A stretch of 64,000 nt of DNA, taken from the NCBI GenBank assembly GCA_963769985.1, contig CAVYNR010000007.1, forward strand, positions 6,762-70,761. The letters run 5' to 3'. Under the pieces are notes generated by a model. That model saw nothing but the letters and a program-made list of their open reading frames with translations, was not told where the DNA came from and searched no databases. Each line of letters starts with the position of its first letter. Position 1 is the stretch's first letter. This document shows, one piece after another, positions 686 to 40,171 of the stretch. The position numbers and the translations under genes are program-made. Origin of the DNA: an uncultured Actinomycetes bacterium (GTDB taxonomy: Bacteria > Actinomycetota > Acidimicrobiia > Acidimicrobiales > JACCXE01).

Positions 686-1444
686 TCACTTTGAAAACTT
701 GGCGTCGCGCTTTTCGACAAACGCATCGCGGGCTTCGTCGGCGACGCCCGACAAGTTGAGTTCGAACGTGAAGCCCTGCTCGTAGCGGTAGCTGCGCTTC
801 ACGTCGACCGGGTCGATCCCGTTGAGAGACGCCTTGGCGGCTCGGATGACCGTCGGACTCTTCGACGCGATCTGTTCGGCGACGTCGAGCGCAGCGGACC
901 GCAGGGCATCGGGCGACACGACCCGCAACACCGAACCGAAGGCGTGCAACTCTGCAGCGGTGGCGGTCGCGCTTGTGTAGACCATCGCCCGCATCTTGTG
1001 CTGCGGCACGAGGCGAGCGAGGTGCGTCGCCGCGCCGAGCGCGCCACGATCGACCTCGGGCAGACCGAAGGTCGCGTCGGTCGCCGCGATGACGACGTCG
1101 GCATTTCCCACCAGGCCGATGCCGCCGCCCAGGCAGAACCCGTTGACCGCCGCGATCACGGGAACCTCGCAGTCGTACACGGCAGCAAACGCAGCGAAGC
1201 AGCCCTTGTTCGCTCCAAGCAAGGCGTCGAAGCCGACGGTTGCCTGCATCTCCTTGATGTCGACGCCGGCGTTGAAGCCCCGGCCTTCCGCCCGCAACAC
1301 GACCACGTGCACGTCGGGATTCCGTCCCGCGGTGATCAGCTGATCGGCCAACTCGTACCACCCGGCGACGGTCAACGCGTTGACCGGCGGGTTGTCCATG
1401 ACGATCTCGGCGATGTGATCGGTGACCGTGGTGGAGATGCCCAT
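686..1444 (-). CDS. echA20: enoyl-CoA hydratase (EchA20-like crotonase)
   Basis: Intact ORF 686..1492 with crotonase motifs (RAEGRGFNAGVDIKE, FCLGGGIGLVGNADVVIA). I prefer the ATG at 1444 (MGISTTV) because AAGGAA lies 6 nt upstream. Synteny with ipdA supports the call. Confidence 0.85.
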   Translation of the reverse strand: MGISTTVTDHIAEIVMDNPPVNALTVAGWYELADQLITAGRNPDVHVVVLRAEGRGFNAGVDIKEMQATVGFDALLGANKGCFAAFAAVYDCEVPVIAAVNGFCLGGGIGLVGNADVVIAATDATFGLPEVDRGALGAATHLARLVPQHKMRAMVYTSATATAAELHAFGSVLRVVSPDALRSAALDVAEQIASKSPTVIRAAKASLNGIDPVDVKRSYRYEQGFTFELNLSGVADEARDAFVEKRDAKFSK

Positions 1445-1463
1445 AGATTCCTTGTTGTTAGTT

Positions 1464-1480
1464 TCTGATGCGTCGTCAGA
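1464..1480. promoter_or_regulatory. palindromic operator candidate TCTGATgcgtcGTCAGA (site 1 of 7)
   Basis: Lies in the divergent gap between echA20 (-) and the SDR at 1514 (+). One core mismatch. Preceded by the -10-like TAGTTT. Confidence 0.5.
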
Positions 1481-1513
1481 TTCCGTGAGCAAGGTAGCTC
1501 AGAAGGGGAATGC

Positions 1514-2254
1514 ATGGGCATTGCACTCGACATGAGCGGGCTGGTCGTGCTCGTGACCGGTGGTGCCCGCGGTGTTGGCCGCGGCATCAGCGACGTCTTC
1601 GCGTCCGCCGGCGCGACGGTCGTGATCTGTGGGCGCACCGAGCCCGAGGGCGGCCCGGAGTTCATCGCATGCGACGTACGCGAGCCGGAGCAGGTGGACG
1701 CGCTCGTGAGCACGATCGTCGACCGACATGGTCGGCTCGATGCCGTCGTCAACAACGCCGGCGGCTCGCCCGCGGCCGACGCCGCGACCGCCTCCCCCCG
1801 CTTCTCGGCGTCGATCATCGGACTGAACCTGTTGGGTCCGCTGCACGTGTCCCAGCGCGCCAACGCGGTTATGCAAGAACAGCCCGACGGCGGCGCGATC
1901 GTGAACGTGGGCAGCGTGAGCGCACTGCGGCCGTCGCCGGGAACCGCCGCCTATGCGGCGGCCAAGGGAGGCCTCATCAGCCTGACCCAGACGCTGGCGG
2001 TCGAGTGGGCGCCCAAGGTACGAGTGAACTTGGTGACCGGCGGCATCATCGCCACCGAGCAGTCCGAACTCTTCTACGGCGACGAGTCGCGGCAGGCCGC
2101 GATCGCAAAGACGATCCCCGCCGGGCGCATGGGCGAACCGCTCGACATCGCAAACGCGTGCGTGTTCCTCGCGTCTCCGTTGGCGAGCTATATCAGCGGC
2201 GCCAACCTCGTGGTGCACGGCGGCGGCGAACCGCCGCGCTACCTCGAAGCGTAG
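1514..2254 (+). CDS. short-chain dehydrogenase/reductase (Rv3549c-like position)
   Basis: Intact 246-aa ORF with VLVTGGARGVGRGI cofactor motif and YAAAKGG catalytic motif. Divergent from echA20. Confidence 0.85.
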   Translation: MGIALDMSGLVVLVTGGARGVGRGISDVFASAGATVVICGRTEPEGGPEFIACDVREPEQVDALVSTIVDRHGRLDAVVNNAGGSPAADAATASPRFSASIIGLNLLGPLHVSQRANAVMQEQPDGGAIVNVGSVSALRPSPGTAAYAAAKGGLISLTQTLAVEWAPKVRVNLVTGGIIATEQSELFYGDESRQAAIAKTIPAGRMGEPLDIANACVFLASPLASYISGANLVVHGGGEPPRYLEA

Positions 2255-3456
2255 GTATCCAACGCGCGCGCGGCGGCGCGCGGGCCATCGGCTCCCTGAA
2301 GTTCACGGGCCAAACTACCGGCACGCGCTCGAATCCCGGCGTCGTTGACGGCAGTGTGCAACCGTCCGACAAGCCTGGCGCGTGTCAGGCGCTTGGCCGG
2401 CAACGGCTTCGGACCCGCGCCCAGCTCGGCTATGCGTTTGCCGAAATAGAACTGGTCGGTGATGTGGGGCACGATCACCTGTGGCAATCCGACCCGCGCC
2501 GCCATCGCGGTGGTGCCCGCCCCGCCGTGGTGCACGATCACGGCCATGCGGGGCAGGAGACGCCGATGGTTGACTCCCGTCACCCAGTGAACGTTGTCGC
2601 CACTCGCACCGTTCCCCAGGCCACCCCAGCCCTGATCGAGCACCGCGCGCAGACCGCTCTCCTCCAAGGCTCCAACCACCAGCGACGTGCGCGCGTCTGG
2701 ATCGCCCGCGGGCATGCTCCCGAATCCGATGTAGACCGGCGGCGGCCCGGCCGTCAGAAACGCCTCGAGCCCTGCATCCAACGCGGCGCCATCATCTTCG
2801 AGCAGGCAGGCGCCGAGAGGTGACGTGCCGCGGTGGCGGGGGGCGACGATGGCTTGGTCGTAGAGACCGAGCACGAGTGGCGACGACGTGATGGACTCCA
2901 GGAGCCGTGTTGGACCGCTCTACGTCCCGCCCGCGAGTAGGTGTCCACGGCGACGTCGCGAAACAGCCGGTCGAAGACCGCGTTCTGCGCGCCCCACAAC
3001 ATCGCGTTGACGGCTCGACCGCCGCCGTGGAGCGGCACGAAGTGAGGCGGTAGTCCCGCCGCGCGCTCGTTCGTCAGGCGCGAACGACGCGTACACGTAG
3101 CGGATGCCCTGGCTGGCGCACAGAGGCGGCGCGAATAGCTGGAGGCCGGCGCCGACGACCACATCGACGTCGCGACACGCGGCATCGAGCGCGTCGAGCG
3201 CGATTCCCGCTGCTGGTCGAAGCTGTCGACCGGCGCGAAGAAGATCCCGGAGTCCACCGTCTAACCCGGTTGATAGATCCTGCGCGTCGACATCAATCGG
3301 CAGGAAGCGAATGCCTCGTCGCTCGAACACGTCACGAAAGTCGCGCGTCGTGCACGCGGTAACCTCCCAGCCCGCGGCCAGCAATTCGGTGCCGAGAACC
3401 GCCAGCGGCACGACGTCCCCCGTGCTGCCAATCGGAGCGAGCGCTACGCGCTTCAC
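2239..3456 (-). CDS. GT1-family (MGT/sterol-glucosyltransferase-like) glycosyltransferase, frameshifted in this assembly
   Basis: N-terminal fragment 2920..3456 (MKRVALAPIGSTGDVVPLAVLG...), middle piece in frame 2754..3257, C-terminal fragment 2239..2874 (VIVHHGGAGTTAMAARVGLPQVIVPHITDQFYFG, the UDP-sugar motif). At least two frame changes. The 3' end overlaps the convergent SDR by 16 nt. Confidence 0.7.
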
Positions 3457-3589
3457 CGCCAGCTCAGACGAGGCGCTGCGGCGCGGAAGCGTGCTGGGAG
3501 CCGTGCGAGCATCGACAACAACGGTAGACGGCCGCGTTCGACTTGCTGTCCGGCACCACGACGAACACGCGAGCCTCTAGCGTGCCGCC

Positions 3590-4506
3590 GTGATCCGTGT
3601 TGCCAACGTGTCGAAGCGGTATGGCGACACGACCGCGCTCTGCGAAGTTGACCTTGCGGTGGATGCCGGCGAGATCGTCACGCTTCTCGGGGCGAACGGT
3701 GCCGGCAAGACAAGTTTGCTTTCGCTCATCGCAGGGCTCCGCCGACCTGACGACGGAAACGTGACCATCGGTGACGCAGCCGGCGATCCCCGGTTGCCGT
3801 CGGTGCGAGCGATGCTCGGGTTCGCGCCGCAGGAACTTGGGATTTATCCCGGAATCAGCGTCGCGGCCAACATTCTCTTTTTTGCAGAACTCTCCGGCAT
3901 GCGCGGCCCACGCGCACGCATCCGCGTCGAGGAAACGGCCGCCGATCTCGGGCTCACCGACCTGCTGGCACGTCGAGCGGGTGGACTATCGGGTGGCGAG
4001 CGGCGCCGAGTGCACGTTGCTATGGCGCTCGTACACCGGCCGAGTGTGGTCGTGCTCGACGAACCAACCGCAGGCGTCGATGTTACGGCGCGCGGCGACC
4101 TGGTGAGCCTGGTTCGCGCGTCGCCGAGCGCGGCGCCACGGTCGTCTATTCGACGCACTACCTGGCGGAAGCTGAGGCTCTCAATGGGCGCGTTGCCGTG
4201 TTACATCGTGGTCGAAAGGTTGCCGACGCTCCGCTGCACGCGCTCACGCAGGGCCTGCCCGGTCGCGTGAAGCTGACGTTTGACGGTGGAGCGCCGATGC
4301 TGGCGCTCGACGCCGCGTTGTGCCCCACGCTCGACGGCAACGTGTTGACGATCAGTACCCCGGAACCGGAGCGTCATGCGGCCACGGTTCTCGCCGCCGC
4401 GGCGGGACACGTCGAACGTCTGCGCTCGGTCCGCATCCTGCCTGCCAGCCTCGAGGACGTCTACGTCGCGGCGACCGGTGAAGCGTTGGCCGAGGAGGGT
4501 CGATGA
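3590..4506 (+). CDS. ABC transporter ATP-binding protein (DrrA/ABC-2 exporter type), one frameshift near 4110
   Basis: Walker A GANGAGKTS, signature LSGGERRRV, Walker B VVVLDEPTAGVD in ORF 3590..4270. The sequence continues as ERGATVVYSTHYLAEAEAL...VLHRGRKVAD in ORF 4198..4506. Confidence 0.8.
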
Positions 4507-5300
4507 CCTCAGCCGTGAAACCGTCCCGCGCGCTCACGCGCTTGGTAGCGCTGTGGCGTCATGAGTCCCGGATCATCACTAGGCAGGCACCGCTGCTGAT
4601 CGCGTCGATCGTGATGCCACTCGTAGTCATGGTGTTCTTGCAGCCGACCTTTCGTGTCGCCTTGGAGAACGAGGGCTACACGAACGCCTCCGGCGCCGAG
4701 CAGGCCGTGCCAGGTGTCGCGGTGATGTTCTCGTTCTTCATCGTCGGCGTGGTCGCGGTTGCCTTCCTGCGCGAACACGGGTTCGGCACCTGGGATCGTC
4801 TCCGCGCGAGCCCGGCTGCTCCCTGGGAAATCATCATTGGCAAACTTGGCCTGTTGTCGATCGTGGCCGGTCTTCAACAGGGACTGCTCTTCATCATTGG
4901 CGTGATGGGTGCGGGACTCGTTATCCGCGGCAGTGTCGTAGCGCTGGCGCTAGTGGCCGCCGGTCTAGTGGCCTCAGTGCTAGGCCTCGGTGTCGCGGTC
5001 ATGGCGGTGTGCTCGACGCAGCAACAGATTGCGCTCGTCCAGACACTCGGCACGATGGCTTCCGCCGGCCTCAGCGGCTCCCTCACCCCCGCGTCGCTGA
5101 TGCCCGAGTTTGCGAGCGTCATCGGCCCTTGCCTGCCGGGCTATTGGGCCATGCGCGGCTACCGAGCCGTGCTACTCGATGGAGCGGGCGTCGCCGACGT
5201 TCTTGGGTCGGTCGGGATGTTGTTGGGATTCGCCGCGCTGTTTGGAGGCGTCGCGATTATCCGCTTCCGTTCAGAGGAACCGCGCGCGAGTTGGTGGTAG
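4503..5300 (+). CDS. ABC-2 type transporter permease
   Basis: Intact 265-aa ORF with about six hydrophobic segments. ATGA start/stop overlap with the ATPase gene. Confidence 0.8.
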   Translation: MTSAVKPSRALTRLVALWRHESRIITRQAPLLIASIVMPLVVMVFLQPTFRVALENEGYTNASGAEQAVPGVAVMFSFFIVGVVAVAFLREHGFGTWDRLRASPAAPWEIIIGKLGLLSIVAGLQQGLLFIIGVMGAGLVIRGSVVALALVAAGLVASVLGLGVAVMAVCSTQQQIALVQTLGTMASAGLSGSLTPASLMPEFASVIGPCLPGYWAMRGYRAVLLDGAGVADVLGSVGMLLGFAALFGGVAIIRFRSEEPRASWW

Positions 5301-5322
5301 GCGTAGCAAATATGAGCGGGCC

Positions 5323-6063
5323 GTGAGCGCGATCTACCGCGCGTTGGAGACGGTACGGGGACGGATCGATACCCATGTCGTGGCGCGGTCCTCGATGAAA
5401 TCGACTGGCCAGCGTCGGGAGGTGCTCGTTCTAGGCGACTCGCACGCCAAGGTCTTCGTGCAGCCGTTGTTCCGTGAGGAGTTTCCGAATCATTTCTTCG
5501 GCGTCGTCAGCGTGGGCGGCGCCACGATCTCAGGTCTCGATAATCCGAACTCCAAAACGAAGGCACTTCCCCTCTTCACGACATATATGGCGGCAAGACA
5601 GGCCGCGACCACGATCACGTTGCTCGGCGAGGTCGACGCAGGCTTTGTGCTCTGGTACCGCGCCAAGAAGGCCAACGTCTCGATCGAGACGATGTTGGAG
5701 CGCGCGGTCGAGAACTACGAAGCCTTCCTGCAGAAGGTGGGCGAACGCTCCCGCGTCGTGGTGATCAGCGCGCCGCTTCCAACCATTCCCGACGGCAGTC
5801 GTGCCGGCGTCGTAGCGAACGCCAGGAAGTCGGTCACTGCGAGTCAGCAAGAGCGAACCGATTTGACCCTGGCTTTCAACGGGCGAGTGCGCGACGTATG
5901 TCGCAAGCACGACTTCACCTTCGTGTCGCTCGACGCCGAGTCGGTGGGTCCTGACGGACTGGTGCGGCCTGACCTACTCGGCGGCAATCCGCGGGACCAC
6001 CACTACGACCGCGAGCGTTACGCAGCGCTTATCGCAGCGAAACTGCGAGAGGTGCTCGACTAG
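5323..6063 (+). CDS. hypothetical protein, SGNH/GDSL-hydrolase-like
   Basis: Intact frame. The VLVLGDSHAKVF block resembles the GDS(x) nucleophile motif. I chose the GTG at 5323, just after the permease stop; the ATG at 5395 is an alternative. Confidence 0.55.
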   Translation: MSAIYRALETVRGRIDTHVVARSSMKSTGQRREVLVLGDSHAKVFVQPLFREEFPNHFFGVVSVGGATISGLDNPNSKTKALPLFTTYMAARQAATTITLLGEVDAGFVLWYRAKKANVSIETMLERAVENYEAFLQKVGERSRVVVISAPLPTIPDGSRAGVVANARKSVTASQQERTDLTLAFNGRVRDVCRKHDFTFVSLDAESVGPDGLVRPDLLGGNPRDHHYDRERYAALIAAKLREVLD

Positions 6064-6064
6064 G

Positions 6065-7246
6065 TCAGTTCTCGTCCATGCCTCCGAGCACGTCGGTGTC
6101 GTAACCCCATTCTTCGAAGGCGAAGGCCCATTCAGATGCGATGCGGTCAGCGAGGGAACGTTCAAGACGAAAACGGCCAGGTTCATAACCCTGAATTTCA
6201 TTTAGGTGCTCTCGAAGCCGCGGTTCGAACGCAGCCCAGCCCCCCAAGCCGAGTTCTTCGTAGACCCGACGCAGGGTCGCTACGGGATCGGCAACCAGGT
6301 CTTCGTAACGAATCTCTGCGTACTGTCCGGCAGGAATCGACGCGCGTTGCACGATGTGTTCCTGCATCAGTTCGCGATAGGAGTGGTAGAAGAACTCGCG
6401 CAGCTGATCCTCGTCGTGCGGTGCGAGTTCCATGATGTGCGCACCCGCCTCGATCGCGTGCCAGGCGGACAGGTAGACCCCGTAGGGGTGGCGCACGATG
6501 TGCAGGAACGGCGCGTCTGGCCACCGCTTCTGAATGTGGAGCAGCCGTGCCGTGTTCCACGGATTTTTCGCGACCAGCCGCTTGCCGTCTGCCAGCCACG
6601 ACGCTTTCCGGAACACCTTCTCGCGTGTCCGTTCCCAGCGTTCGAGTTCTTTGGGGGCGAGGTCGCGCATGAGAGCCCACTTGTCGTAAAAGCGCTGAGC
6701 ATGACGGGGGAAGTAGAGGAACCCTGGCGTGCCCTTGCCGGAGAGGAGGAAGACCGAACCCTCCTCCTCCTCCGGTTCGTCGGGGTGGAACGCCATGTCG
6801 TCCATCGGACGTTTCTCGGGCCCCATCCCCCCTAACAATCGATCCGTCAGTGGGCGTCCAGTAGCGCACATCGCGGGAAAGATCGCTTGGCGAAAACGGA
6901 GAAAGCCGAATTGCTCATCACGCGCGAGCAGGCGGAACAACATCGTGGTTCCGGACCGAGCGTGACCTACTACGAAGAAGGGCGAGTGCTCGATTACGTG
7001 TTCGCGCAGAGAGCGGCGCGTCGCGACCGCCTCGACAAGACGGACCGGAGCAAGGGCCGACGTTGCTCCGAGCAGGATCGCCGCCCGCGGCCAGTTGTCG
7101 ATGCTGTCGCGGTTGCGCCAGAACAACCGCGCCAAGTTGGTAGTCGTACTCCCCGCCATGGGCGAGACGATGTCGTGTTGGATGCGTTGTCGAATCGATG
7201 CGAGTCTCGACTCGCTGGGTCCCAGACCAGCGCCAGGAGCCGTCAC
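6065..7246 (-). CDS. sulfotransferase family protein (copy 1)
   Basis: Intact. PAPS 5'-phosphosulfate loop FVVGHARSGTTMLFRLL and 3'-phosphate-type block IVRHPYGVYLS. The GTG at 7246 overlaps the upstream TGA (GTGA). Conservation with copy 2 begins just after this start. Confidence 0.8.
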   Translation of the reverse strand: MTAPGAGLGPSESRLASIRQRIQHDIVSPMAGSTTTNLARLFWRNRDSIDNWPRAAILLGATSALAPVRLVEAVATRRSLREHVIEHSPFFVVGHARSGTTMLFRLLARDEQFGFLRFRQAIFPAMCATGRPLTDRLLGGMGPEKRPMDDMAFHPDEPEEEEGSVFLLSGKGTPGFLYFPRHAQRFYDKWALMRDLAPKELERWERTREKVFRKASWLADGKRLVAKNPWNTARLLHIQKRWPDAPFLHIVRHPYGVYLSAWHAIEAGAHIMELAPHDEDQLREFFYHSYRELMQEHIVQRASIPAGQYAEIRYEDLVADPVATLRRVYEELGLGGWAAFEPRLREHLNEIQGYEPGRFRLERSLADRIASEWAFAFEEWGYDTDVLGGMDEN

Positions 7247-8397
7247 GACTCGTCGACGCCTGAGAACGCCCCGGGGTCGTAACCCCACTCGTCGAAGGCG
7301 AAGGCCCACTCCGAAGCAATTCGTTCCGCCATGTCAGCATCGAGACGAAACCGTCCGGGCTGATATCCCTCAATCTCGACCAGGTACGCCCGGAGCTTGG
7401 GCTCAAACGCCGGCCAGCCGCCAAGGTCGAGTTCCTCGTAGATGCGCCGGAGCGTCGCGACGGGATCGGTCACCAGATCTTCGTATCGAATCTCTGCGTA
7501 CTGGCCCGCAGGGACCAACGATCGTTGGGCAATATGGGCTTGCATCAGACTCCTGTACTCCCGAAAGAAGAACTCCCGGAGGTCGTTGTCGTCGTGGCTC
7601 GCGAGCTCCATGATGTGTGCACCCGCCTCGATCGCGTGCCACGCCGACAAATAGACCCCGTAGGGGTGTCGGACAATGTGGAGGATCGGCGCGTCCGGCC
7701 ACCGCTCGAGGATTTGCGGCAGCCACGCGGTATTCCACGGGTTCTTCGCGACTAAGCGCTTGCCGTCATCGAGCCAGGACGCCTTGCGGAATACGGCATC
7801 GCGGGTGCGTTCCCATCGCCGCTTTTCCCGAAGTGTCAAGCCCTGCATAAGCGCCCACTTGTCGAAATACCTTTCCGCGTTGCGAGGGAAGTAGAGGAAG
7901 CCTCCGATACCCGTTCCCGAAAGCTGGTCGAGAGATAGTTCCTCCTCGTCGGGCTGGTCCGGGTACACGTCCATATCATCCATGGGGCGTGTTGCAGGGC
8001 CCATCCCGGTTAAGAATCGGTCGGCCAACGGGCGGCCCGTTGCACACATGGCGGGGAAGATGGCCTGTCGAAACCTAAGGAAGCCGAACTGGTCGTCGCA
8101 GGCGAGAAGGCGAAAGAGCATCGTCGTACCCGAGCGGGCATGACCAACCACGAACAAGGGCGACTCTTGCATCACGTGTCTGCGAAGCGGGCGGTACGTC
8201 GCAATCGTCTCTGCTAGTCGTACCGGCGCCAGGACCGACGTCACGCCTAGTAGCAGTGCCGCCCGCGGCCAGTTATCGATGCTGTTGCGGTTCTGCCAAA
8301 ACATCCGAATGAGGTTCGTCGTCCGGGCGCCCGCCATTGGCGAAACGATGTCGTGTTCAATCCGGCGTCGGACAGACGCGATCGTCGGTCGGCTCAC
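7243..8397 (-). CDS. sulfotransferase family protein (copy 2, tandem paralogue)
   Basis: Intact, with the same motifs as copy 1. By eye roughly three quarters identical to copy 1. The GTG at 8397 overlaps the TGA of the upstream SDR (GTGA). Confidence 0.8.
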   Translation of the reverse strand: MSRPTIASVRRRIEHDIVSPMAGARTTNLIRMFWQNRNSIDNWPRAALLLGVTSVLAPVRLAETIATYRPLRRHVMQESPLFVVGHARSGTTMLFRLLACDDQFGFLRFRQAIFPAMCATGRPLADRFLTGMGPATRPMDDMDVYPDQPDEEELSLDQLSGTGIGGFLYFPRNAERYFDKWALMQGLTLREKRRWERTRDAVFRKASWLDDGKRLVAKNPWNTAWLPQILERWPDAPILHIVRHPYGVYLSAWHAIEAGAHIMELASHDDNDLREFFFREYRSLMQAHIAQRSLVPAGQYAEIRYEDLVTDPVATLRRIYEELDLGGWPAFEPKLRAYLVEIEGYQPGRFRLDADMAERIASEWAFAFDEWGYDPGAFSGVDES

Positions 8398-9170
8398 GGG
8401 TGTTGCGAGCTGACGGACAGAACCTCGCCCGTCATGTAGCTGGCGTAATCGCTCGCAAGGAAGATGATGACGTTGGCGACTTCCCACGGCTCAGCGGCGC
8501 GGCCGAAGGCCTCCTTCGCTGTGAGCTCTTCCAGCAGTTCCTCGGTCGTCACCTTCGACAAGAACTCGTGCATGGCGAGTGAAGGCGCGACCGCGTTGAC
8601 GCGCACGCCGAAGGGTGCGGCCTCGATGGCCGCCGAGCGGGTCAGCGCCATGACACCGGCCTTGGCCGCCGCGTAGTGCGCCTGGCCCGCCTGCGCGCGC
8701 CAACCGATGACCGACGCGTTGTTCACGATCGAACCCGACCCCCGTGCTGTCATGTGACGAAGGGCGGCGCGCGTGCAGCGCATCGTGCCGTTGAGCGTGA
8801 CGTCGACGACGGACGACCACTGCTCGTCGGTCATCTCCGCGAGATTCGCAGTACCGCCGAGGCCGGCATTGTTGACGGCCACGTCGATGCCGCCGTGCTG
8901 GCTGACGGCGGCGTCGAACAGCGCCTGCACTTGGGCTTCATCGGTAACGTCGCAGGCGACCGCGAGCGGGCGCGCGCCCATGATCGGTTCCAACGACTCG
9001 GCCGCTTCGTTGAGTCGGCGCTCGTGCCGGTCGCTCAGCACCACGACCGCGCCCTCTTCGGCGCAGCGCTTGGCCGTGGCAAACCCGATGCCGGTGCCGG
9101 CAGCGGCGGTGACCAGCACGATGCGATCACGCAGCAGGTTGTGACCCTCGACGTAGGGAGGCGAGGTCAC
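8394..9170 (-). CDS. short-chain dehydrogenase/reductase
   Basis: GTG at 9170 gives VTSPPYVEGHNLLRDRIVLVTAAAGTGIGFATAKRC...YAAAKAGV...; 258 codons, intact. Track ORF 8394..9503 is a chimera of this gene and the upstream gene's tail. Confidence 0.8.
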   Translation of the reverse strand: MTSPPYVEGHNLLRDRIVLVTAAAGTGIGFATAKRCAEEGAVVVLSDRHERRLNEAAESLEPIMGARPLAVACDVTDEAQVQALFDAAVSQHGGIDVAVNNAGLGGTANLAEMTDEQWSSVVDVTLNGTMRCTRAALRHMTARGSGSIVNNASVIGWRAQAGQAHYAAAKAGVMALTRSAAIEAAPFGVRVNAVAPSLAMHEFLSKVTTEELLEELTAKEAFGRAAEPWEVANVIIFLASDYASYMTGEVLSVSSQHP

Positions 9171-10074
9171 GCACGTTGGGCTTGTCACCCGATGCCGCGG
9201 CCTTGGCCATCTCCTCGAGACGGGCGAGCATCGGCATCTTCTCCTGGCCGACGGTGCCGTCGATCCGCGCCTCGATCTCCTCGGGCGTCCAGCGGCCGTC
9301 GGTGTACATCGCGCGCAACCCGTTGGTTGGTTCCACACCGCAATCTTGCCGCCGACGGCCGTGTACACCTGGCCAGTGATGTGGCGCGACTTGTCGCCGA
9401 GCAGATACACCACGAGCGGCGCCACGTCTTCGGGCTCACCCATTTCCGCCAGCTCCATCGGCACGTTGGCCGCCATCCGCGTACCGCGCGATCGGCGCCA
9501 CACAGTTGGCGGTGACGCCGTACTTGTTGAGGCCGAGCGCCACGCTACGCGTCAACGACACGATGCCGCCCTTGGCCGCCGAGTAGTTCGCCTGCGCGAC
9601 GCTGCCCTGGAACGCGCCGGACGTGAACCCGATCAACGACCCGGAGTTCTGCTTGCGCATCACCGCGGCCGCGGCGCGGAAGACCGTGAACGTGCCCTTC
9701 AGGTGCGTCTCGACTACCGGGTCGAACTCTTCCTCGGACATGTTGAACAGCATCCGTTCGCGCAGGATGCCGGCCACGCACACCACGCCGTCGATCCGGC
9801 CCCACTCGTCGATACCGGCCTGCACGATGCGCTCCCCACCCGCCATCGTGGTGACGGATTCGGCGATCGCGATCGCCGAGCCGCCAATTTCGCCGATCTC
9901 CTTGACGACGGCGTCGGCGACTTCGCTGGTGGGGTCCTCGCCGGCCATGCCGACGCCGTAATCGGCCACGACCACCCGGGCACCCTCGGCCGCGCAGGCC
10001 AACGCAACCGCTCGACCGATTCCTCTACCGGCACCCGTGATCGCAACGACTTTGTCCTGCAAATAACCGCTCAA
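9127..10074 (-). CDS. SDR of the MFE-2/Hsd4A-like 3-hydroxyacyl-CoA dehydrogenase type, about 2 frameshifts
   Basis: ORF 9436..10074 (KVVAITGAGRGIGRAVAL...YSAAKGGIVSLTRS) continues out of frame as TRMAANVPMELAEMGEPEDVAPLVVYLLGDKSRHITGQVYTAVGGKIAVWNQP, then RAMYTDGRWTPEEIEARIDG (ORF 9127..9336). Confidence 0.7.
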
Positions 10075-10095
10075 CGGGTCCCCTCTGGTTGGAAA

Positions 10096-10112
10096 TCTGA
10101 CGCGACGTTAGC
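10096..10112. promoter_or_regulatory. palindromic operator candidate TCTGACgcgacGTTAGC (site 2 of 7, weakest)
   Basis: Lies in the divergent gap between the SDR operon (-) and fadD19-like (+). The right arm is degenerate. Confidence 0.35.
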
Positions 10113-10163
10113 AAAATGGTTTGAGCGTTTGCCGGTCGAAATGAAACGTGTTCTACTTGCCAT

Positions 10164-11780
10164 GTGGAGTACCACCTGGCCGATCTGTTCGAGTACGCGG
10201 TCGACAATTTCGGCGAGCGCGACTTCGTCATCTGCGACGGAAAACGCCGCACGTACACGCAAATGGAGGAGCGGGCGAACCGCCTCGCGCACCACTTGCA
10301 GGCGGCCGGCGTGAAGCCCGGCGACCACGTCGGCATCTACTCGCTCAACTCGGTCGAGTGGATCGAGATCATGTGGGCGGTCTTCAAGATCCGCGCCGTG
10401 TGGATCAACATCAACTTCCGCTACGTCGAGGAGGAACTGCGCTACCTGTTCACCAACGCCGATCTGGTCGCGCTCGTGCATCAGCGCCAGTACTCACCAC
10501 CGCGTCGAAGGGGTGCTCCCGCACCTGCCGGACTTGAAGCACATCGTCACGATCGACGACGGCAGCGACGTCGCTGCGCCCACCGGCGCGATCGACTACG
10601 AGGACGCGGTCGCCAGCGGCTCACCCGAGCGTGACTTCGGTCCCCGCTCACCCGACGACCACTACATCCTCTACACGGGCGGCACGACCGGTATGCCCAA
10701 AGGGGTCGTGTGGCGGCAAGAAGACGTGTTCTTCGCGCTCGGCGGCGGCCTCGACCTGCCCACCGGCAACCGCGTAGCCAGCCCCAAGGGCATGGTCGAG
10801 CGCGGCCTCGCCAACGGACCGATCACGATGCTGCCGATCGCGCCGCTCATGCACGGCGCGACGCAGTGGGGCCTGATGCAGGGCGCGTTCATCGGAAACA
10901 AGCTCGTGCTCGTGCCCGAGTTCGACCCCGCCGAGGTGTGGCGGCTCGTGGGCGAGGAGCAGGTGAACGTCGTGATGATCACCGGCGACGCGATGGGTCG
11001 TCCGCTGGTGGAGGAACTCGACAACGAGGATGCGAACTACGACCTGTCGTCGTTGATCGCGCTGTCGTCGACGGCGGCGGTGTTCTCGCCGAGCGGTGAA
11101 GGACCAGTTCTTCAAGCGCTTGCCGAACCTGATCATGACCGACTCGGTCGGTTCGTCCGAAGGCGGCGCCAACGGGCTGACCTACGTGTCGAAGGACAAC
11201 ACCGCGATGAAGGGCGGCCCGACAGTCACCCCGAACGAAGACACCGCGGTGTTCGACGACGACGGCAACCGCGTGCAGCCGGGCTCCGGCGTGATCGGCA
11301 AGATCGCGCGCAGCGGCCCCGTCCCCATCGGGTACTACAAGGATCCTGAAAAGACCGCCGAGACATTCATCCAACTCGAAGGGCGTCGCTGGTCGGTACC
11401 GGGCGACTTCGCACAAGTCGAAGCCGACGGCACGATCACGCTGCTCGGCCGCGGTTCGGTGTCGATCAACTCGGGCGGCGAGAAGATTCACCCCGAAGAG
11501 GTCGAGGCCGCGGTGAAGTCGCACCCCGACGTGTGGGACGCGGTAGTCGTCGGCGTGCCCGACGAGCGCTGGGGTCAACGCGTGGCGGCGGTCATCCAGG
11601 CTCGTGCAGGCGTGTCGTCCTGACCTCGAGTCGATTCAAGAGCACTGCCGACTGTCGATCGCCCGTTACAAGGTGCCGCGCGAACTGCACGTCGTGGACG
11701 AGATGGTGCGTTCACCCAGCGGCAAGCCCGACTACCGCTGGGCCCTCAATATCGCTACCTCTGCAACCGCAATTTCCTAG
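10164..11780 (+). CDS. fadD19: steroid-side-chain acyl-CoA synthetase (FadD19-like), about 3 frameshifts
   Basis: Fragments 10164..10634, 10513..11349 and 11096..11623, plus a tail DLESIQEHCRLSIARYKVPRELHVVDEMVRSPSGKPDYRWA ending at TAG 11778. Blocks NFRYVEEELRYLF, YTGGTTGMPKGVVWRQED, GRGSVSINSGGEKIHPEEVE match my recollection of Rv3515c. Confidence 0.75.
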
Positions 11781-11789
11781 GAGCCAACC

Positions 11790-12898
11790 GTGCATACCGA
11801 TCTCTGCGACATGTTCGGCATCGACCTGCCGATCTTCGCCTTCAGTCATTGCCGCGACGTCGTGGCCGCCGTCAGCAAGGCGGGCGGCCTCGGCGTGCTC
11901 GGCGCGCTCGCGTTCACCAACGAGCAGTTGGAGATGGAGCTCAACTGGATCGACGACAACATCGGCGGCAAGCCCTACGGCGTCGACGTCGTGATGCCGG
12001 CGACCTACGAAGGCGCCGGCAACCTCGATCCCGAGCACATGGAAGAACAGCTCGAGGCGATGATCCCGCAGCAGCACAAGGACTGGATCAACAAGGTTCT
12101 CGACGAGAACCACGTTCCGCCGATGCCGGCCGACGAAGAGGTGCACGGCCTCCTCGGTTGGACGCATGAAGGCGCCCGTCCGCAGGTCGACATCGCGCTG
12201 GCCCATCCGATCAAGCTGCTCGTCAACGCGCTCGGCCCGCCCCCAAAGACATCGTCGACCTCGCCCACGAGCACGGCGTGAAGGTGGCCGCGCTCATCGG
12301 CAGCGTGCAGCAGGCGCAGCGTCAGGTGAACCAGGGCGTCGACATCATCGTCGCCCAGGGCCACGAAGCGGGCGGCCACACCGGCGAGATCGCGTCGATG
12401 GTGTTGCTGCCCGAAGTGGTCGACGCGGTCGCGCCCGTCCCCGTGCTCGGCGCCGGTGGCATCGGCCGCGGTCGACAGATCGCGGCCGCGATGGCGCTCG
12501 GCGCGCAGGGCGTGTGGACGGGTTCGGTGTGGCTCACCACCGCGGAGAGCGACATGCAGCCGATGGTCGTGGAGAAGCTGTTGGCGGCGTCGTCGCGCGA
12601 CACGGTGCGGTCGCGTTGCATGACCGGCAAGCCGGCGCGTCAGCTGCGCACCGGCTGGACCGACGCGTGGGAAGCCGAAGACGCGCCGGGCTTCCTCCCG
12701 ATGCCGCTGCAGTACCTGGCGACGGCCGAAGCGCAGCGCCGCATCGGCCGGTCGGGCAACCGCGAGCTGACCGGCATTCCCGTCGGTCAGATCGTCGGCT
12801 CGATGAACGAGGTGCGTCCGGTGAAGGACGTCATCTTCGAGATGGTCGAAGAGTTCATCGACGCCAGCGAGCGCGTGGCCAAGCTCGGCCAGGAGTAA
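11790..12898 (+). CDS. nitronate monooxygenase-family flavin oxidoreductase (IpdC-like?), one frameshift near 12240
   Basis: ORFs 11790..12281 and 12278..12898 join as ...NALGPPPKDIVDLAHEHGVKVAALIG...AQGHEAGGHTG if one base is added at the C5/A3 run at 12240..12247. AGGAG lies 7 nt upstream of the GTG. Confidence 0.7.
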
Positions 12899-12908
12899 AC
12901 AAGTCGGC

Positions 12909-14892
<1,984 letters not shown>

Positions 14893-14923
14893 GACGGACT
14901 CCCTCGACGACGACCAGACATAC

Positions 14924-14937
14924 TAGAACCTGTTCTG
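14924..14937. promoter_or_regulatory. KstR-type operator TAGAACctGTTCTG
   Basis: Matches TnnAACnnGTTnnA except at the last base. Lies in the fadA5-like/cyp142-like divergent gap. Confidence 0.65.
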
Positions 14938-14971
14938 ATTCGCCGCGTTCGGCTAGCTAGGCTTCGGCGCC

Positions 14972-16171
14972 TTGAGCGCAAACCGCGTCGTCAATCACCC
15001 GACCCGCGACGACATCGACCTCGTCAGCGGCGCGTTCTGGGGGCGCAATCCCCACGAAGAGATGGCGTGGATGCGCGCCAACGCCCCGGTCTACTGGGAC
15101 GGGCGCACGTGGGGCATCACCCGCTACGCCGATCTGAAGCACGTGTCGAGCGATCCCGCGACGTTCTCCAACGCCGGCGGCATCCGGCCCGACTCCGGGA
15201 CCGATCGCGATGATGATCGACATGGACGACCCGGATCACCTCCGGCGTCGCAAGCTCGTCAACCGCGGCTACACCCCGCGCCGCGTGCGCGACCGCGAAG
15301 CCGAGGTGCGCGCGACGTGTGACGCGATCATCGACCGCATCGTCGGGCAGGACACGTGCGACTTCGTGTGGGACATCGCCGCGCCGCTGCCGCTCGCGAT
15401 GATCGCCAACGACCTCGGCATGGACGAGTCCGATCGTCCGCAGCTGCTCGGAGTGGAGCGACGCCATGATGCGCGCCCTCACCGGCGACCCCGATGTCGT
15501 CGAGAAGGCTGGCGAAGCGTTCGGCGGGTACATGGGCGTACGCGGCTGATGTCATCGCCGACCGCACGCGAGAACCCGCGCGACGACTTGATGAGCGTGC
15601 TGTGCCACGCCGAAGTCGACGGCGAACAGCCTCGACGACGAGCGATCATCCACGAGTCGCTGCTGATCCTCATCGGCGGCGACGAGACAACCCGCCACGT
15701 CATCTCGGGCGGCGCGTACCAACTTCTGGTCGATCGGTCGCGGTGGGACGGCTCCGCGCCGATCCGAGCCTGCTCGGCGACCGCCGTCGAAGAAATGCTG
15801 CGGTGGGTGTCGCCGATCAAGAACATGGCTCGCACCGCGACGCGCGACGTCGAACTCGGCGGTCAAACGATCGCCGAGGGCGACAAGCTGCTGTTGCTTT
15901 ACCCGTCGGCCAATCGCGACGAGGAGATGTTCACCAACCCGTTCGACTTCGACATCGCGCGCACGCCAAACGAGCACGTGGCGTTCGGCTTCGGCACGCA
16001 TTTCTGTCTCGGCAACAGCCTCGCCCGACTCGAGCTCCAGGTGATGTTCGAACAACTCTTCCGCGCCTGCCCAACCTCGAACTGGTCTCCAACGCCGAGC
16101 CCGACTACCGGCCCGCCAACTTCATCTCCGGCTACGAATCGTTGCCGGTTCGCCTCGGCGCCGTCGTCTAA
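14972..16171 (+). CDS. cyp142: cytochrome P450, CYP142-like steroid 26-monooxygenase, several frameshifts
   Basis: FSNAGGIRPD, MMIDMDDPDHLRRRKLVNRGYTPRRV, LLILIGGDETTRH, AVEEMLRWVSPIKNMARTA and heme loop FGFGTHFCLGNSLARLEL are spread over ORFs 14972.., 15210.. and 15494..16171. Putative TTG start. Confidence 0.75.
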
Positions 16172-18907: not shown

Positions 18908-19837
18908 ATGGCGGTGCCCGAGTCGTTTCGTGAGTTGGCGGCGTCGGTGAACAACTGGGGCCGGTGGGGCCGACGACGACGAGATCGGCACGCTCAACCT
19001 CATCACGCCCGAGGTGATCGCGCGCGCCGCCGGATGCGTGAAGACGGGCCGGGCGTTCTCGCTCGCCATTCCGCTGTCGGAGGACGGTCCGCAACTCGGC
19101 TTCGTGAAGGGCCGCGTCAACCCGAGCCGCACGATGATCATGATCAACGAACCGGCGTTCGGCGACGCCACAATGTTCTCCTCGAGCGACGACGTGGTGA
19201 CGATGGGCCTGCAGGCGGCCACGCACTGGGACTCGCTCGCCCACGTGACCTACGACGGTCGGCTCTACAACGGCGTGCACCCGTCGACGATCACCGAGGC
19301 CGGCGCGGCGAAGAACAGCATCGACAAGATCGCCACCCTCGTGAGCCGCGGCGTGCTGCTCGACGTGGCGCACGCGAAAGACGTGCACCGGCTTGAGCCT
19401 GGTTACTCGATCACGGGCGAGGACCTCGACGCCGCCGAAGCGCTGACCAACACGACCGTGACCAGCGGCGACATCGTGCTCGTGCGCACCGGCCAGATGC
19501 AGTTGCTACACGCCGGCGAGAAACTGCAGTACGCCCACCCGAGCCCGGGACCGTCGATCCACTCCGTGCGACTGGTTCCGCGAGCGACGACGTGGCCGCA
19601 GTGGCGACCGATACGTTCGTGTTCGAGGCGTTCCCCGGCGACAACCCCGACTTCCTGTTGCCCGTCCACCTCCTGCATCTCGTGGAGATGGGTCTCACCC
19701 AGGGGCAGAACTTCGACCTGGAAGAACTGTCGCAGGACTGCGCGACCGACGGCGTCTACGAGTTCCTGCTCGACGCGTCGCCTCAGCCCTTCGTCGGCGG
19801 CCTCGGGTCGCCCGTCAACCCTGTCGCGGTGAAATAG
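18908..19837 (+). CDS. cyclase-family (kynurenine formamidase-like) protein, 2 frameshifts
   Basis: MAVPESFRELAASVNNWGRWG, then ORF 19014..19832 (DSLAHVTYDGRLYNG), then ORF 19592..19837 (VAAVATDTFVFEAFPGD...LLHLVEMGLTQGQNF). Confidence 0.7.
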
Positions 19838-19848
19838 AACCTGTTACA
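19835..19848. promoter_or_regulatory. KstR-type operator TAGAACctGTTACA
   Basis: Perfect fit to TnnAACnnGTTnnA. Lies 9 nt upstream of the LLM start and overlaps the cyclase stop codon. Confidence 0.7.
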
Positions 19849-32660: not shown

Positions 32661-33866
32661 CTAGTTCTTTACTAACTCGCGGAAGGGCATGTATTTGTCG
32701 GGCCGCGGTTCGGGCGGTAGACCCAGCACCCGCTCGCCCACCACGTTGCGCTGGACCTCGTCGGTGCCACCGCCAATGCGCGTGGCCCACTGCGTCAGGA
32801 ACTGCTGCTGCCACAGCCCTTCGTCGGGCGCGTCGGCTCCGGACAACATGCCGGCCGCGCCTTCAACGTCGACGCCTAGGTTGCCGTTGCGCTCGACGTG
32901 ACGCGAATACAGCAGCTTGAGGATCGACGCTTCCGCTCCGGGCATCCGCCCTTGTGCGAGCGCCGTCTGCACGCGGTAACCGATGAAGCGCAGCACCTCG
33001 AAACTCGTGAACACGTCGGCCAACTCCTGGCGCACGAGCGGGTCGTTGGTGCGACCGGACTTGCGGACGCGGTCGACGATGTCGCCGAACCCGATGCCGC
33101 CGGCGCCGCCGCCGATGAAGTTGCGTTCGCTGGCCAAGGTGGTGATCGCCACACCCCACCCGCCGTTGACTTCGCCGATCACGTTGCTCGTCGGAATGCG
33201 CACGTCGGTGAGGAACACCTCGTTGAAGTGGGCGACGCCGTTGATCTGGCGGAGCGGGCGCACCTCGATGCCGGGACTGCGCATGTCGAGCACGAAGTAC
33301 GTGAGGCCGTGGTGCTTGGGCTGGTCGAAGTCGGTACGCGCCAGCAGGATGGCCCAGTCGCTGTGCTGCGCGCCGGATGTCCACACCTTCTGCCCATTCA
33401 CCACGAACTCGTCGCCGTCGAGCTCGGCCTTCGTCGAGAGGCCGGCGAGGTCGGAGCCGGCGCCGGGCTCGCTGAAGAGTTGGCACCACACCTCGTCGCC
33501 GCGCAGCAGCGGCGGCAGGTAGCGGTTCTTCTGTTCGTCGGTCCCGTGGGCGATCAACGTTGGGCCCGCCATGCCCATGCCGACGGCGAAGAGTCCCGTC
33601 GACACGTCGAAGGCGGACTGCTCCTCGTTGAACAGCGACTGCTCACGACTACTGCCGCCGCGGCCTCCGTATTCGACGGGCCACGCGATCGCCGCCCACC
33701 CGGCATCGGCGAGCGTTGCTTGCCACTGCTTGCACCGCGCGACGTGCTCGGGGTCGTCGGCCGCGGCCCGGGCCGTCACCGCGCCGCGCAATGGCGCGTT
33801 TTCTTTCAACCAGGCGAGAGCCTCCCCGCGAAACGCGACGTCCTGGGGGCTCTCGTCGAAATCCAT
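32661..33866 (-). CDS. acyl-CoA dehydrogenase
   Basis: Intact 401-aa ORF with CQLFSEPGAGSDLAGLSTKAELDGDEFVVNGQKVWTSGA and GGGTDEVQRNVVGERVLGLP. Confidence 0.85.
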   Translation of the reverse strand: MDFDESPQDVAFRGEALAWLKENAPLRGAVTARAAADDPEHVARCKQWQATLADAGWAAIAWPVEYGGRGGSSREQSLFNEEQSAFDVSTGLFAVGMGMAGPTLIAHGTDEQKNRYLPPLLRGDEVWCQLFSEPGAGSDLAGLSTKAELDGDEFVVNGQKVWTSGAQHSDWAILLARTDFDQPKHHGLTYFVLDMRSPGIEVRPLRQINGVAHFNEVFLTDVRIPTSNVIGEVNGGWGVAITTLASERNFIGGGAGGIGFGDIVDRVRKSGRTNDPLVRQELADVFTSFEVLRFIGYRVQTALAQGRMPGAEASILKLLYSRHVERNGNLGVDVEGAAGMLSGADAPDEGLWQQQFLTQWATRIGGGTDEVQRNVVGERVLGLPPEPRPDKYMPFRELVKN

Positions 33867-34916: not shown

Positions 34917-34930
34917 TAGAACAGATTCTA
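34917..34930. promoter_or_regulatory. degenerate KstR-type box TAGAACagATTCTA
   Basis: 13 of 14 informative positions fit TnnAACnnGTTnnA (G to A in the right half). The arms CTAGAA/TTCTAG are palindromic. Lies upstream of the 34880-to-27797 operon. Confidence 0.45.
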
Positions 34931-40157: not shown

Positions 40158-40171
40158 TGGAACGCGTTACA
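40158..40171. promoter_or_regulatory. KstR-type operator TGGAACgcGTTACA
   Basis: Perfect fit to TnnAACnnGTTnnA. Lies in the divergent gap between the fadE26-like gene and the LLM at 40181. Followed by an isolated TCTGAC half-site. Confidence 0.7.

Follow-up and report, generated by a model that had tools for sequence, protein, structure and literature searches.

The 64,000-nt stretch of DNA analysed here (the window) lies on contig C7 of the metagenome-assembled genome (MAG) of an uncultured actinomycete (3.0 Mb, 61.5% complete), and carries two tandem sulfotransferase genes, stf2 and stf1, directly behind a short-chain dehydrogenase/reductase (SDR) gene. This pair is inserted cargo, lodged between the end of an operon for steroid ring C/D catabolism, whose last gene is ipdF, and the convergent Rv3549c-like SDR gene. 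On balance, we favour a model in which the pair belongs to an accessory cassette, together with a family 1 glycosyltransferase (GT1) and a DrrAB/NodIJ-like exporter of the ABC-2 type (ABC, ATP-binding cassette), that would glycosylate, sulfate and export its product, the two sulfotransferases serving different positions or acceptors. As parts of this model, and held with the same moderate confidence, Stf1 and Stf2 would be active, diverged sulfotransferases dependent on 3′-phosphoadenosine-5′-phosphosulfate (PAPS), and IpdF would be their neighbour by insertion and not their pathway partner. Hereafter, G000 designates the source genome, G001 and G003 to G006 the same-genus genomes cited, and L-numbers the loci inspected.

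The case for insertion starts from the SDR itself. Its sequence scores 440.7 bits against the NCBIfam equivalog PRK07831 (cut-off 336), a model that would correspond to IpdF; it is 86-87% identical to the gene found 3′ of fadE30 in four same-genus genomes (G003-G006), in which the order is fadA6, ipdC and fadD3 on the minus strand, a fadE30-like gene and ipdF on the plus strand, then a convergent Rv3549c-like SDR gene, echA20 and ipdA; and its PDB matches include levodione reductase (1iy8), reported to be the best characterised homologue of IpdF (PMC5380842). The fadD3/fadE30-ipdF arrangement is placed within the KstR2 regulon by Crowe et al. (Table 1; PMC5380842). Judged by the model match, this synteny and the levodione reductase match, the SDR in front of stf2 is thus an IpdF-type enzyme of steroid ring C/D catabolism. 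The fadE30-like acyl-CoA dehydrogenase that relatives carry upstream of ipdF (compare L001 4060-5208) has its best match in the window at 32703-33836 (42%).

What lies behind ipdF varies from one genome to another. In G006, its stop codon is only 69 nt away from the convergent SDR gene, the next core gene; the same spot holds an unrelated 270-aa gene in G003 and three unrelated genes in G004. In G005, it is occupied by a single Stf gene, an ABC ATPase, an ABC-2 permease and a GT1 gene, all co-directional with ipdF; in the window, we find Stf2-Stf1, then an inverted block made of an SGNH-fold esterase/acyltransferase gene, permease and ATPase, then GT1. The convergent 3′ junction of ipdF is, therefore, a hot spot for cargo, and genes sitting there should not be read as members of the pathway. 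Base composition differs as well, the GC content at third codon positions (GC3) being 0.72-0.75 for stf1/stf2 vs 0.84-0.87 for the intact core genes ipdF, echA20 and Rv3549c-like SDR. With a threshold of E below 1e-20, only 2 of 9 other same-genus genomes had a homologue, and another 51 genomes from the order had none. For reference, ipdF/Rv3549c-like SDR convergent junctions can be seen at L027 11626-14127, L029 10561-11524 and L028 11000-11069; the G004 cargo, identified by eye from the translated sequences, is made up of SRPBCC-like, cupin-like and HD-domain/LuxR-like genes.

Both proteins match the Pfam family PF13469 (Sulfotransfer_3; 103.9 bits for Stf1 and 106.8 bits for Stf2, with a cut-off of 27). 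Conserved columns were read from a 34-sequence alignment, with residues numbered as in Stf2. The 5′-phosphosulfate loop (xxRSGTT) is GHARSGTT in both copies, R88, G90 and T91 being invariant, and the 3′-phosphate motif (R-x-P-x5-S) is VRHPYGVYLS in both, with R243, P245 and S251 invariant; P80 and E151 (in P-x-E-E-E) are further invariant columns, and every invariant column is kept in both copies. On the strength of this conservation, the invariant E151 and the near-invariant H86 are candidates for the catalytic base. The AlphaFold2 model of Stf2 is of high quality (predicted local distance difference test score, pLDDT, 92.4; predicted template modelling score, pTM, 0.90), and its top 50 PDB matches are nearly all sulfotransferases. 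The clade is rare: among 1.84 billion representatives of clusters at 50% identity, a single one is more than 50% identical to Stf2, and roughly 635 representatives of the family have an E-value below 1e-30. A contig scan returned one close relative and otherwise three distant Verrucomicrobiales loci; the closest relative among the genomes searched is G005, “uncultured Actinomycetes bacterium MFD04212.bin.c.7” (locus L001). PAPS supply is possible, as the same genome codes for an adenosine-5′-phosphosulfate (APS) kinase domain. This domain (L034/L035; G000 C2:218878-219331) lies inside a 605-codon open frame, the last part being in another frame with a TGA between; the gene probably codes for a CysNC-type fusion and has suffered a frame error of the sort discussed below for the window.

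The pair had been described, by eye, as three quarters identical, and the alignment bears this out: 282 of 383 residues are shared (74%, BLASTP) with zero gaps and an offset of 9 residues, for a DNA identity of 71%. Likewise, the motifs claimed for both copies are there, namely GHARSGTT, the identical core WPDAP..HIVRHPYGVYLSAWHAIEAGAHIMELA and the N-terminal segment (SIRQRIQHDIVSPMAG / SVRRRIEHDIVSPMAG). The proportion of synonymous differences (pS) is 0.67, which means that synonymous sites are saturated, with a nonsynonymous proportion (pN) of 0.165 and a dN/dS of about 0.11; the end branches of Stf1 and Stf2 are equal (0.19 each). Both copies are under purifying selection, and with motifs intact in each, they are genuine tandem paralogues, as first proposed. 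The location of their divergence had to be partly revised: identity is indeed lowest at Stf2 residues ~121-210 (57-67% per 30-residue window), a stretch that includes the candidate catalytic glutamate, but divergence is not confined to the claimed residues 150-200, as windows 271-300 and 331-360 are equally low (63%). The suggestion of different acceptor specificities keeps its place in a somewhat wider form, in which the two enzymes may reasonably be taken to differ in their acceptor or in the position that they sulfate.

In the tree, Stf1 and Stf2 group with the single G005 gene with good support, and the three stand as a trichotomy (approximately unbiased, AU, test p 0.46 and 0.21); the duplication, dated from this tree, is thus about as old as the split between the two species. 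A second Stf-Stf pair was found on an unrelated metagenome contig (L012, 8901-11146), with a 14-nt overlap at its junction, one frame break near 9720 in the first copy, a patatin-like gene upstream and ABC, ABC-2 and GT1 genes downstream. Monophyly of the L012 pair is rejected (AU p = 0.006), so that tandem pairs arose at least two times in the clade.

Discrepancies in initiation codons have to be addressed before making anything of the junctions. The coordinates and GTGA overlaps reported for the SDR-Stf2-Stf1 chain are correct when read on the minus strand: the SDR stop codon (TGA, 8396-8394) overlaps the GTG at 8397-8395, and the Stf2 stop codon (TGA, 7245-7243) overlaps the GTG at 7246-7244. 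The gene caller of the protein collection, however, starts both Stf genes at a downstream ATG (MAG..., 364 aa; P0001 and P0003), and if these alternative starts were right, the GTGA overlaps would vanish. We prefer the upstream GTG codons, which are plausible although unproven, for the following reasons: the paralogues share with each other, and with the G005 orthologue, a conserved stretch of about 20 residues 5′ of the downstream ATG, and this orthologue has its own ATG just ahead of the conserved N-terminal segment (MPSLASVRQRIEHDVTSPMAG); codons 1-30 of the pair show a pN of 0.26 vs a pS of 0.69; residues 6-17 form a helix in the Stf2 AlphaFold2 model; and no other start codon occurs between each GTG and the conserved segment. 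Stf2 and Stf1 are probably co-translated with the upstream gene. This being said, 4-nt stop/start overlaps are routine here, as between the ABC ATPase and permease genes (4503-4506) or in L001 (5205-5208 and 7143-7146); a GTGA overlap as such is common and nothing special in this DNA.

The constant company of this sulfotransferase clade is a GT1 and an ABC-2 exporter, not an SDR of the IpdF type. Six distinct loci with homologues of at least 54% identity were inspected (the window, L001, L012, L013, L019/L020, and L021/L022, the latter being G001), and in 6 of 6, GT1, ABC_tran and ABC2_membrane genes adjoin the sulfotransferase; homologues at 30-38% identity lie in other contexts, without the GT1/ABC-2 company. 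Some loci add a ketoacyl synthase III (KAS III)-like gene, a different SDR of 293 aa and a large FtsX-type permease. The GT1 gene of the window is frame-broken; its intact, orthologue-like counterpart in L001 matches GtfB (1iir), GtfD, GtfA and the C-terminal domain of sterol 3-beta-glucosyltransferase; the best NCBIfam model is the rifamycin-inactivating Rgt, with a score far below the cut-off. By these matches, the glycosyltransferase of the cassette is a GT1 of the small-molecule type. The cassette is also present in G001, a 98%-complete genome in which a sequence search gave no ipdF or ipdA match, which indicates that it is independent of steroid catabolism; likewise, no steroid context surrounds the cassettes of L012 and L013/L019.

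The SGNH gene is present only in the window version of the cassette. Its Pfam match is weak, with invariant GDSH and DHH columns; its model (pLDDT 88) finds sialate and other carbohydrate O-acetylesterases as best folds, and homologues from other phyla (50-55% identity) stand beside sulfotransferase, Wzx and family 4 glycosyltransferase (GT4) genes in 2 of 3 places (L038, L039). Folds and contexts, taken together, favour a sugar-containing substrate. More broadly, we came across a widespread family of SGNH proteins of about 240 aa, mostly without a Pfam match and about 50% identical across phyla (L038 3581-6747; L039 3350-7865), whose members may serve specifically as partners in the sulfation of glycans. 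The source genome has, besides, three or four other sulfotransferase genes with GT4 and a Wzx-type flippase (L036, C10:33000-52000) in what looks like a sulfated-polysaccharide locus.

Put together, these genes suggest a possible sequence of events. The GT1 would glycosylate a hydrophobic acceptor at the cytoplasmic face of the membrane; the two sulfotransferases would then add sulfate from PAPS at two positions, or on two variants of the acceptor; the SGNH enzyme may take off or move an acyl group; and the ABC-2 transporter would carry the glycoconjugate, once sulfated, out to the envelope or into the medium. The features of the region are listed in Table 1.

Table 1. Coordinates of the sulfotransferase pair, of its cassette partners and of the adjoining steroid-catabolism features (positions in the window).
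Feature	Position	Strand	Remarks
Stf2	7243..8397	minus	384-aa PAPS-type sulfotransferase, Sulfotransfer_3; preferred GTG start overlaps ipdF stop (GTGA)
Stf1	6065..7246	minus	393-aa Stf2 paralogue; preferred GTG start overlaps Stf2 stop (GTGA)
SGNH-fold esterase/acyltransferase	5323..6063	plus	start GTG 5323 or ATG 5395; converges on Stf1, 1-nt gap
ABC-2 type permease, DrrB-like	4503..5300	plus	68% identical to L001 permease
ABC ATPase, DrrA/NodI-like	3590..4506	plus	one frame break near 4114-4120
GT1 glycosyltransferase, GtfB/Rgt/sterol-GT-like	2239..3456	minus	two frame breaks; 3′ end overlaps end of core SDR gene 1514-2254
IpdF-type SDR	8394..9170	minus	258-aa product, starting with GTG at 9170; steroid ring C/D core gene, outside cassette
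Rv3548c-like SDR (PRK07791 type)	9127..10074	minus	first gene of unit; two frame breaks; fadE30 slot of relatives
KstR-type operator box TGAAACGTGTTCTA	10142..10155		90-nt divergent gap, fadD3 vs SDR-ipdF-stf2-stf1 unit

Regulation has to be considered, since the pair lies at the end of a steroid unit. The motif TnnAACnnGTTnnA, which we take to be the KstR-type consensus, has 3 exact matches in the window vs 0.21 expected, and 18 vs 5.7 expected when one mismatch is allowed; the box upstream of the SDR-ipdF-stf2-stf1 unit is a perfect match, and L001 and L028 have the same box between fadD3 and fadE30. As stf2 overlaps the ipdF stop codon, the pair is probably transcribed from this putative KstR-box promoter and may, thus, be expressed with the steroid genes; the variable cargo at this site suggests that such co-expression is incidental, a by-product of where the cassette landed. 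The GT/ABC divergent gap contains no KstR box. Positions 1400-10300, scanned for generic promoters and terminators, gave nothing above shuffled controls, and a putative KstR2-type operator (AnCAAGnnCTTGnT) was discarded, its single match, with one mismatch, lying inside the fadD3 coding region, at chance level. Elsewhere in the steroid cluster, boxes of the KstR type with no more than one mismatch are scattered at 14924-14937, 19835-19848, 34917-34930 and 40158-40171.

Frame breaks are numerous in this region and affect the GT1, ABC ATPase and Rv3548c-like SDR genes, as well as fadD3 (10164-11780), ipdC (11790-12898) and fadA6 (13732-14981); stf1, stf2, ipdF, echA20 and the permease and SGNH genes are intact. 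Since the breaks often consist of two compensating shifts within ~50-60 codons, they look like long-read consensus errors rather than decay. With so many breaks in a MAG of such completeness, one could wonder whether the pair itself is an artefact, two strain variants of one gene laid in tandem by a poor long-read assembly. We hardly give this any credit: strain variants would be near-identical, whereas a DNA identity of 71% with saturated synonymous sites rules out a strain collapse, selection on the copies is strongly purifying, and an independent locus (L012) also has a tandem pair.

Among the readings that give the cassette a biological role other than the one we favour, the most serious, although unlikely, is the conjugation and efflux of steroids or xenobiotics, in which GT1 and the sulfotransferases would modify hydroxylated steroids or dead-end intermediates, the ABC-2 transporter would expel them, and the system would be induced through the KstR box. 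The overlap of stf2 with the ipdF stop codon and the box upstream of the unit are what one would expect of such a system, as is the G005 cassette, which continues the fadE30-ipdF operon; the match of the GT C-terminal domain to sterol 3-beta-glucosyltransferase goes in the same direction, as does Rgt as best NCBIfam model, even if far below its cut-off, and PAPS-dependent sulfation of cholesterol is known in Bacteroides (BT0416; PMC9417993). Yet the cassette does without steroid genes in L012, L013, L019 and G001, and the two copies in a steroid cluster, inserted at a common site within a single genus, count as about one event; G003 and G004 have unrelated cargo at this site, and the GT/ABC divergent gap lacks a KstR box. 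Moreover, the intermediates of rings C/D are coenzyme A (CoA) thioesters (PMC5380842), not obvious acceptors of sulfate, and the folds of steroid and cytosolic SULT enzymes match weakly (template modelling, TM, scores of 0.3-0.4). A bolder form of the same idea, to which we give somewhat less weight still, would make the cassette a steroid-induced “phase II / phase III” system, driven from the KstR-controlled ipdF operon, that glycosylates, doubly sulfates and exports steroid-derived alcohols during sterol catabolism.

Two further proposals concern the way the proteins would work together. An obligate Stf1/Stf2 heteromer, in which the chains work only as a complex and translational coupling equalises their amounts, would fit the tandem, overlapping genes and the second tandem pair of L012 with its 14-nt overlap; we find it improbable because G005, G001, L013 and L019 have cassettes with one sulfotransferase only, from which one chain would be enough for function, and because both copies keep every cofactor and catalytic column, nothing pointing to a degenerate partner. 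Still more doubtful, to the point of being very improbable, is the functional SDR-Stf-Stf steroid unit put forward in the original prediction; in such a unit, the SDR would create or oxidise a hydroxyl on which the sulfotransferases then act. The tight chaining of the three genes by GTGA overlaps speaks for it, and so does the different, 293-aa SDR that cassettes of the L013/L019/L021 version have next to their sulfotransferase; but the SDR of the window is of the conserved IpdF type, found without a sulfotransferase behind it in G003, G004 and G006, and IpdF acts on CoA thioesters of ring C/D intermediates (PMC5380842). A survey of 61 related genomes and the 6 loci with close homologues revealed no other triad, an absence from relatives that the original prediction had itself named as grounds for its rejection; the nearest arrangements are ipdF with a single Stf in G005 and the unrelated Stf-Stf-ABC-ABC-GT order of L012.

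Several points do weigh against the export cassette that we favour. In two species, the ipdF operon has this cassette at its 3′ end, and the co-directional arrangement of the cassette with fadE30-ipdF in G005 would also fit a steroid-linked role. With the GT1, ABC ATPase and other genes frame-broken, the cassette could be partly decayed in this genome, and the context evidence for the SGNH gene comes from three look-ups only. Finally, we know of no substrate for any of the close relatives, nor of an acceptor assigned to the solved mycobacterial STF1 and STF9.

The sulfotransferase clade is rare and without a substrate-assigned member, and its fixed GT1 and ABC-2 company suggests that uncultured actinomycetes of the soil make a sulfated glycoconjugate as yet undescribed. 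The cassette is a compact gene set that could be expressed in order to find its molecule. Having arisen at least twice, tandem pairs are a natural experiment on the divergence of acceptor or position specificity within this fold. Those who study steroid catabolism should above all be cautious, as the 3′ neighbours of ipdF may be cargo.

How does this set of genes compare with known systems? Closeness to SULT2-type steroid sulfotransferases was not found, the fold match of the Stf2 model given above being weak (TM 0.3-0.4 for steroid and cytosolic SULT structures). The best solved fold is STF9 of M. avium (2z6v; TM 0.67 to the Stf2 model), and STF1 of M. tuberculosis (Rv3529c, 2zq5) reaches a TM of ~0.6; they share with the window proteins the Pfam family, a length of ~380-390 aa and a long helical N-terminal extension ahead of the PAPS loop. 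Orthology with M. tuberculosis Stf1 or STF9 is, however, ruled out by an identity of 16-19% in structural alignments (16% against 2zq5), the phmmer E-values being 8.6e-6 (28 bits, 2zq5) and 4.4e-3; the window clade differs, in addition, by its conserved GT1 and ABC-2 neighbours. A parallel exists in that Rv3529c adjoins Rv3530c, a “possible oxidoreductase”, in the cholesterol region of M. tuberculosis. The claim that a dehydrogenase coupled to sulfotransferases is not a described steroid-pathway layout has, thus, to be softened, as a sulfotransferase beside an oxidoreductase has this precedent; by synteny, the SDR of the window is of the IpdF type (Rv3559c slot).

Stf3, the omega-hydroxy-beta-dihydromenaquinone-9 sulfotransferase, belongs to the same superfamily and acts on a membrane lipid, with a cytochrome P450 as its known partner instead of GT1 and ABC-2; a protein named Stf3 by its source is a distant match (P0036, E 1.2e-13, 28% identity). 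The gene for another distant homologue (L033 6001-8438; 33% identity) overlaps that of a cytochrome P450, and a DrrA-like ABC pair comes next; this layout recalls the stf3-cyp128 pairing of M. tuberculosis. As for the SDR, IpdF (Rv3559c) oxidises the 5-hydroxyl of HIC-CoA, and the window enzyme is likened to it by PRK07831 and synteny; its setting differs in that fadE30 is replaced by the Rv3548c-like SDR, while fadD3 is present.

On the export side, the ATPase (ABC_tran) and permease (ABC2_membrane) of the window resemble DrrAB, DrrA and DrrB being among their top NCBIfam models, with scores below the subfamily cut-offs. The secretion of Nod factors (NodH/NoeE with NodIJ) follows a like logic, a cytoplasmic glycoconjugate being sulfated from PAPS and exported by an ABC-2 transporter; the scores are, however, far below cut-offs (150/521 for the ATPase against NodI and 19/500 for Stf1 against NoeE), and the glycosyltransferase of the window is of the small-molecule GT1 type, not a NodC-like chitin synthase. 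We would, thus, regard Nod-factor systems as an analogy for the cassette, not as a family to which it belongs.

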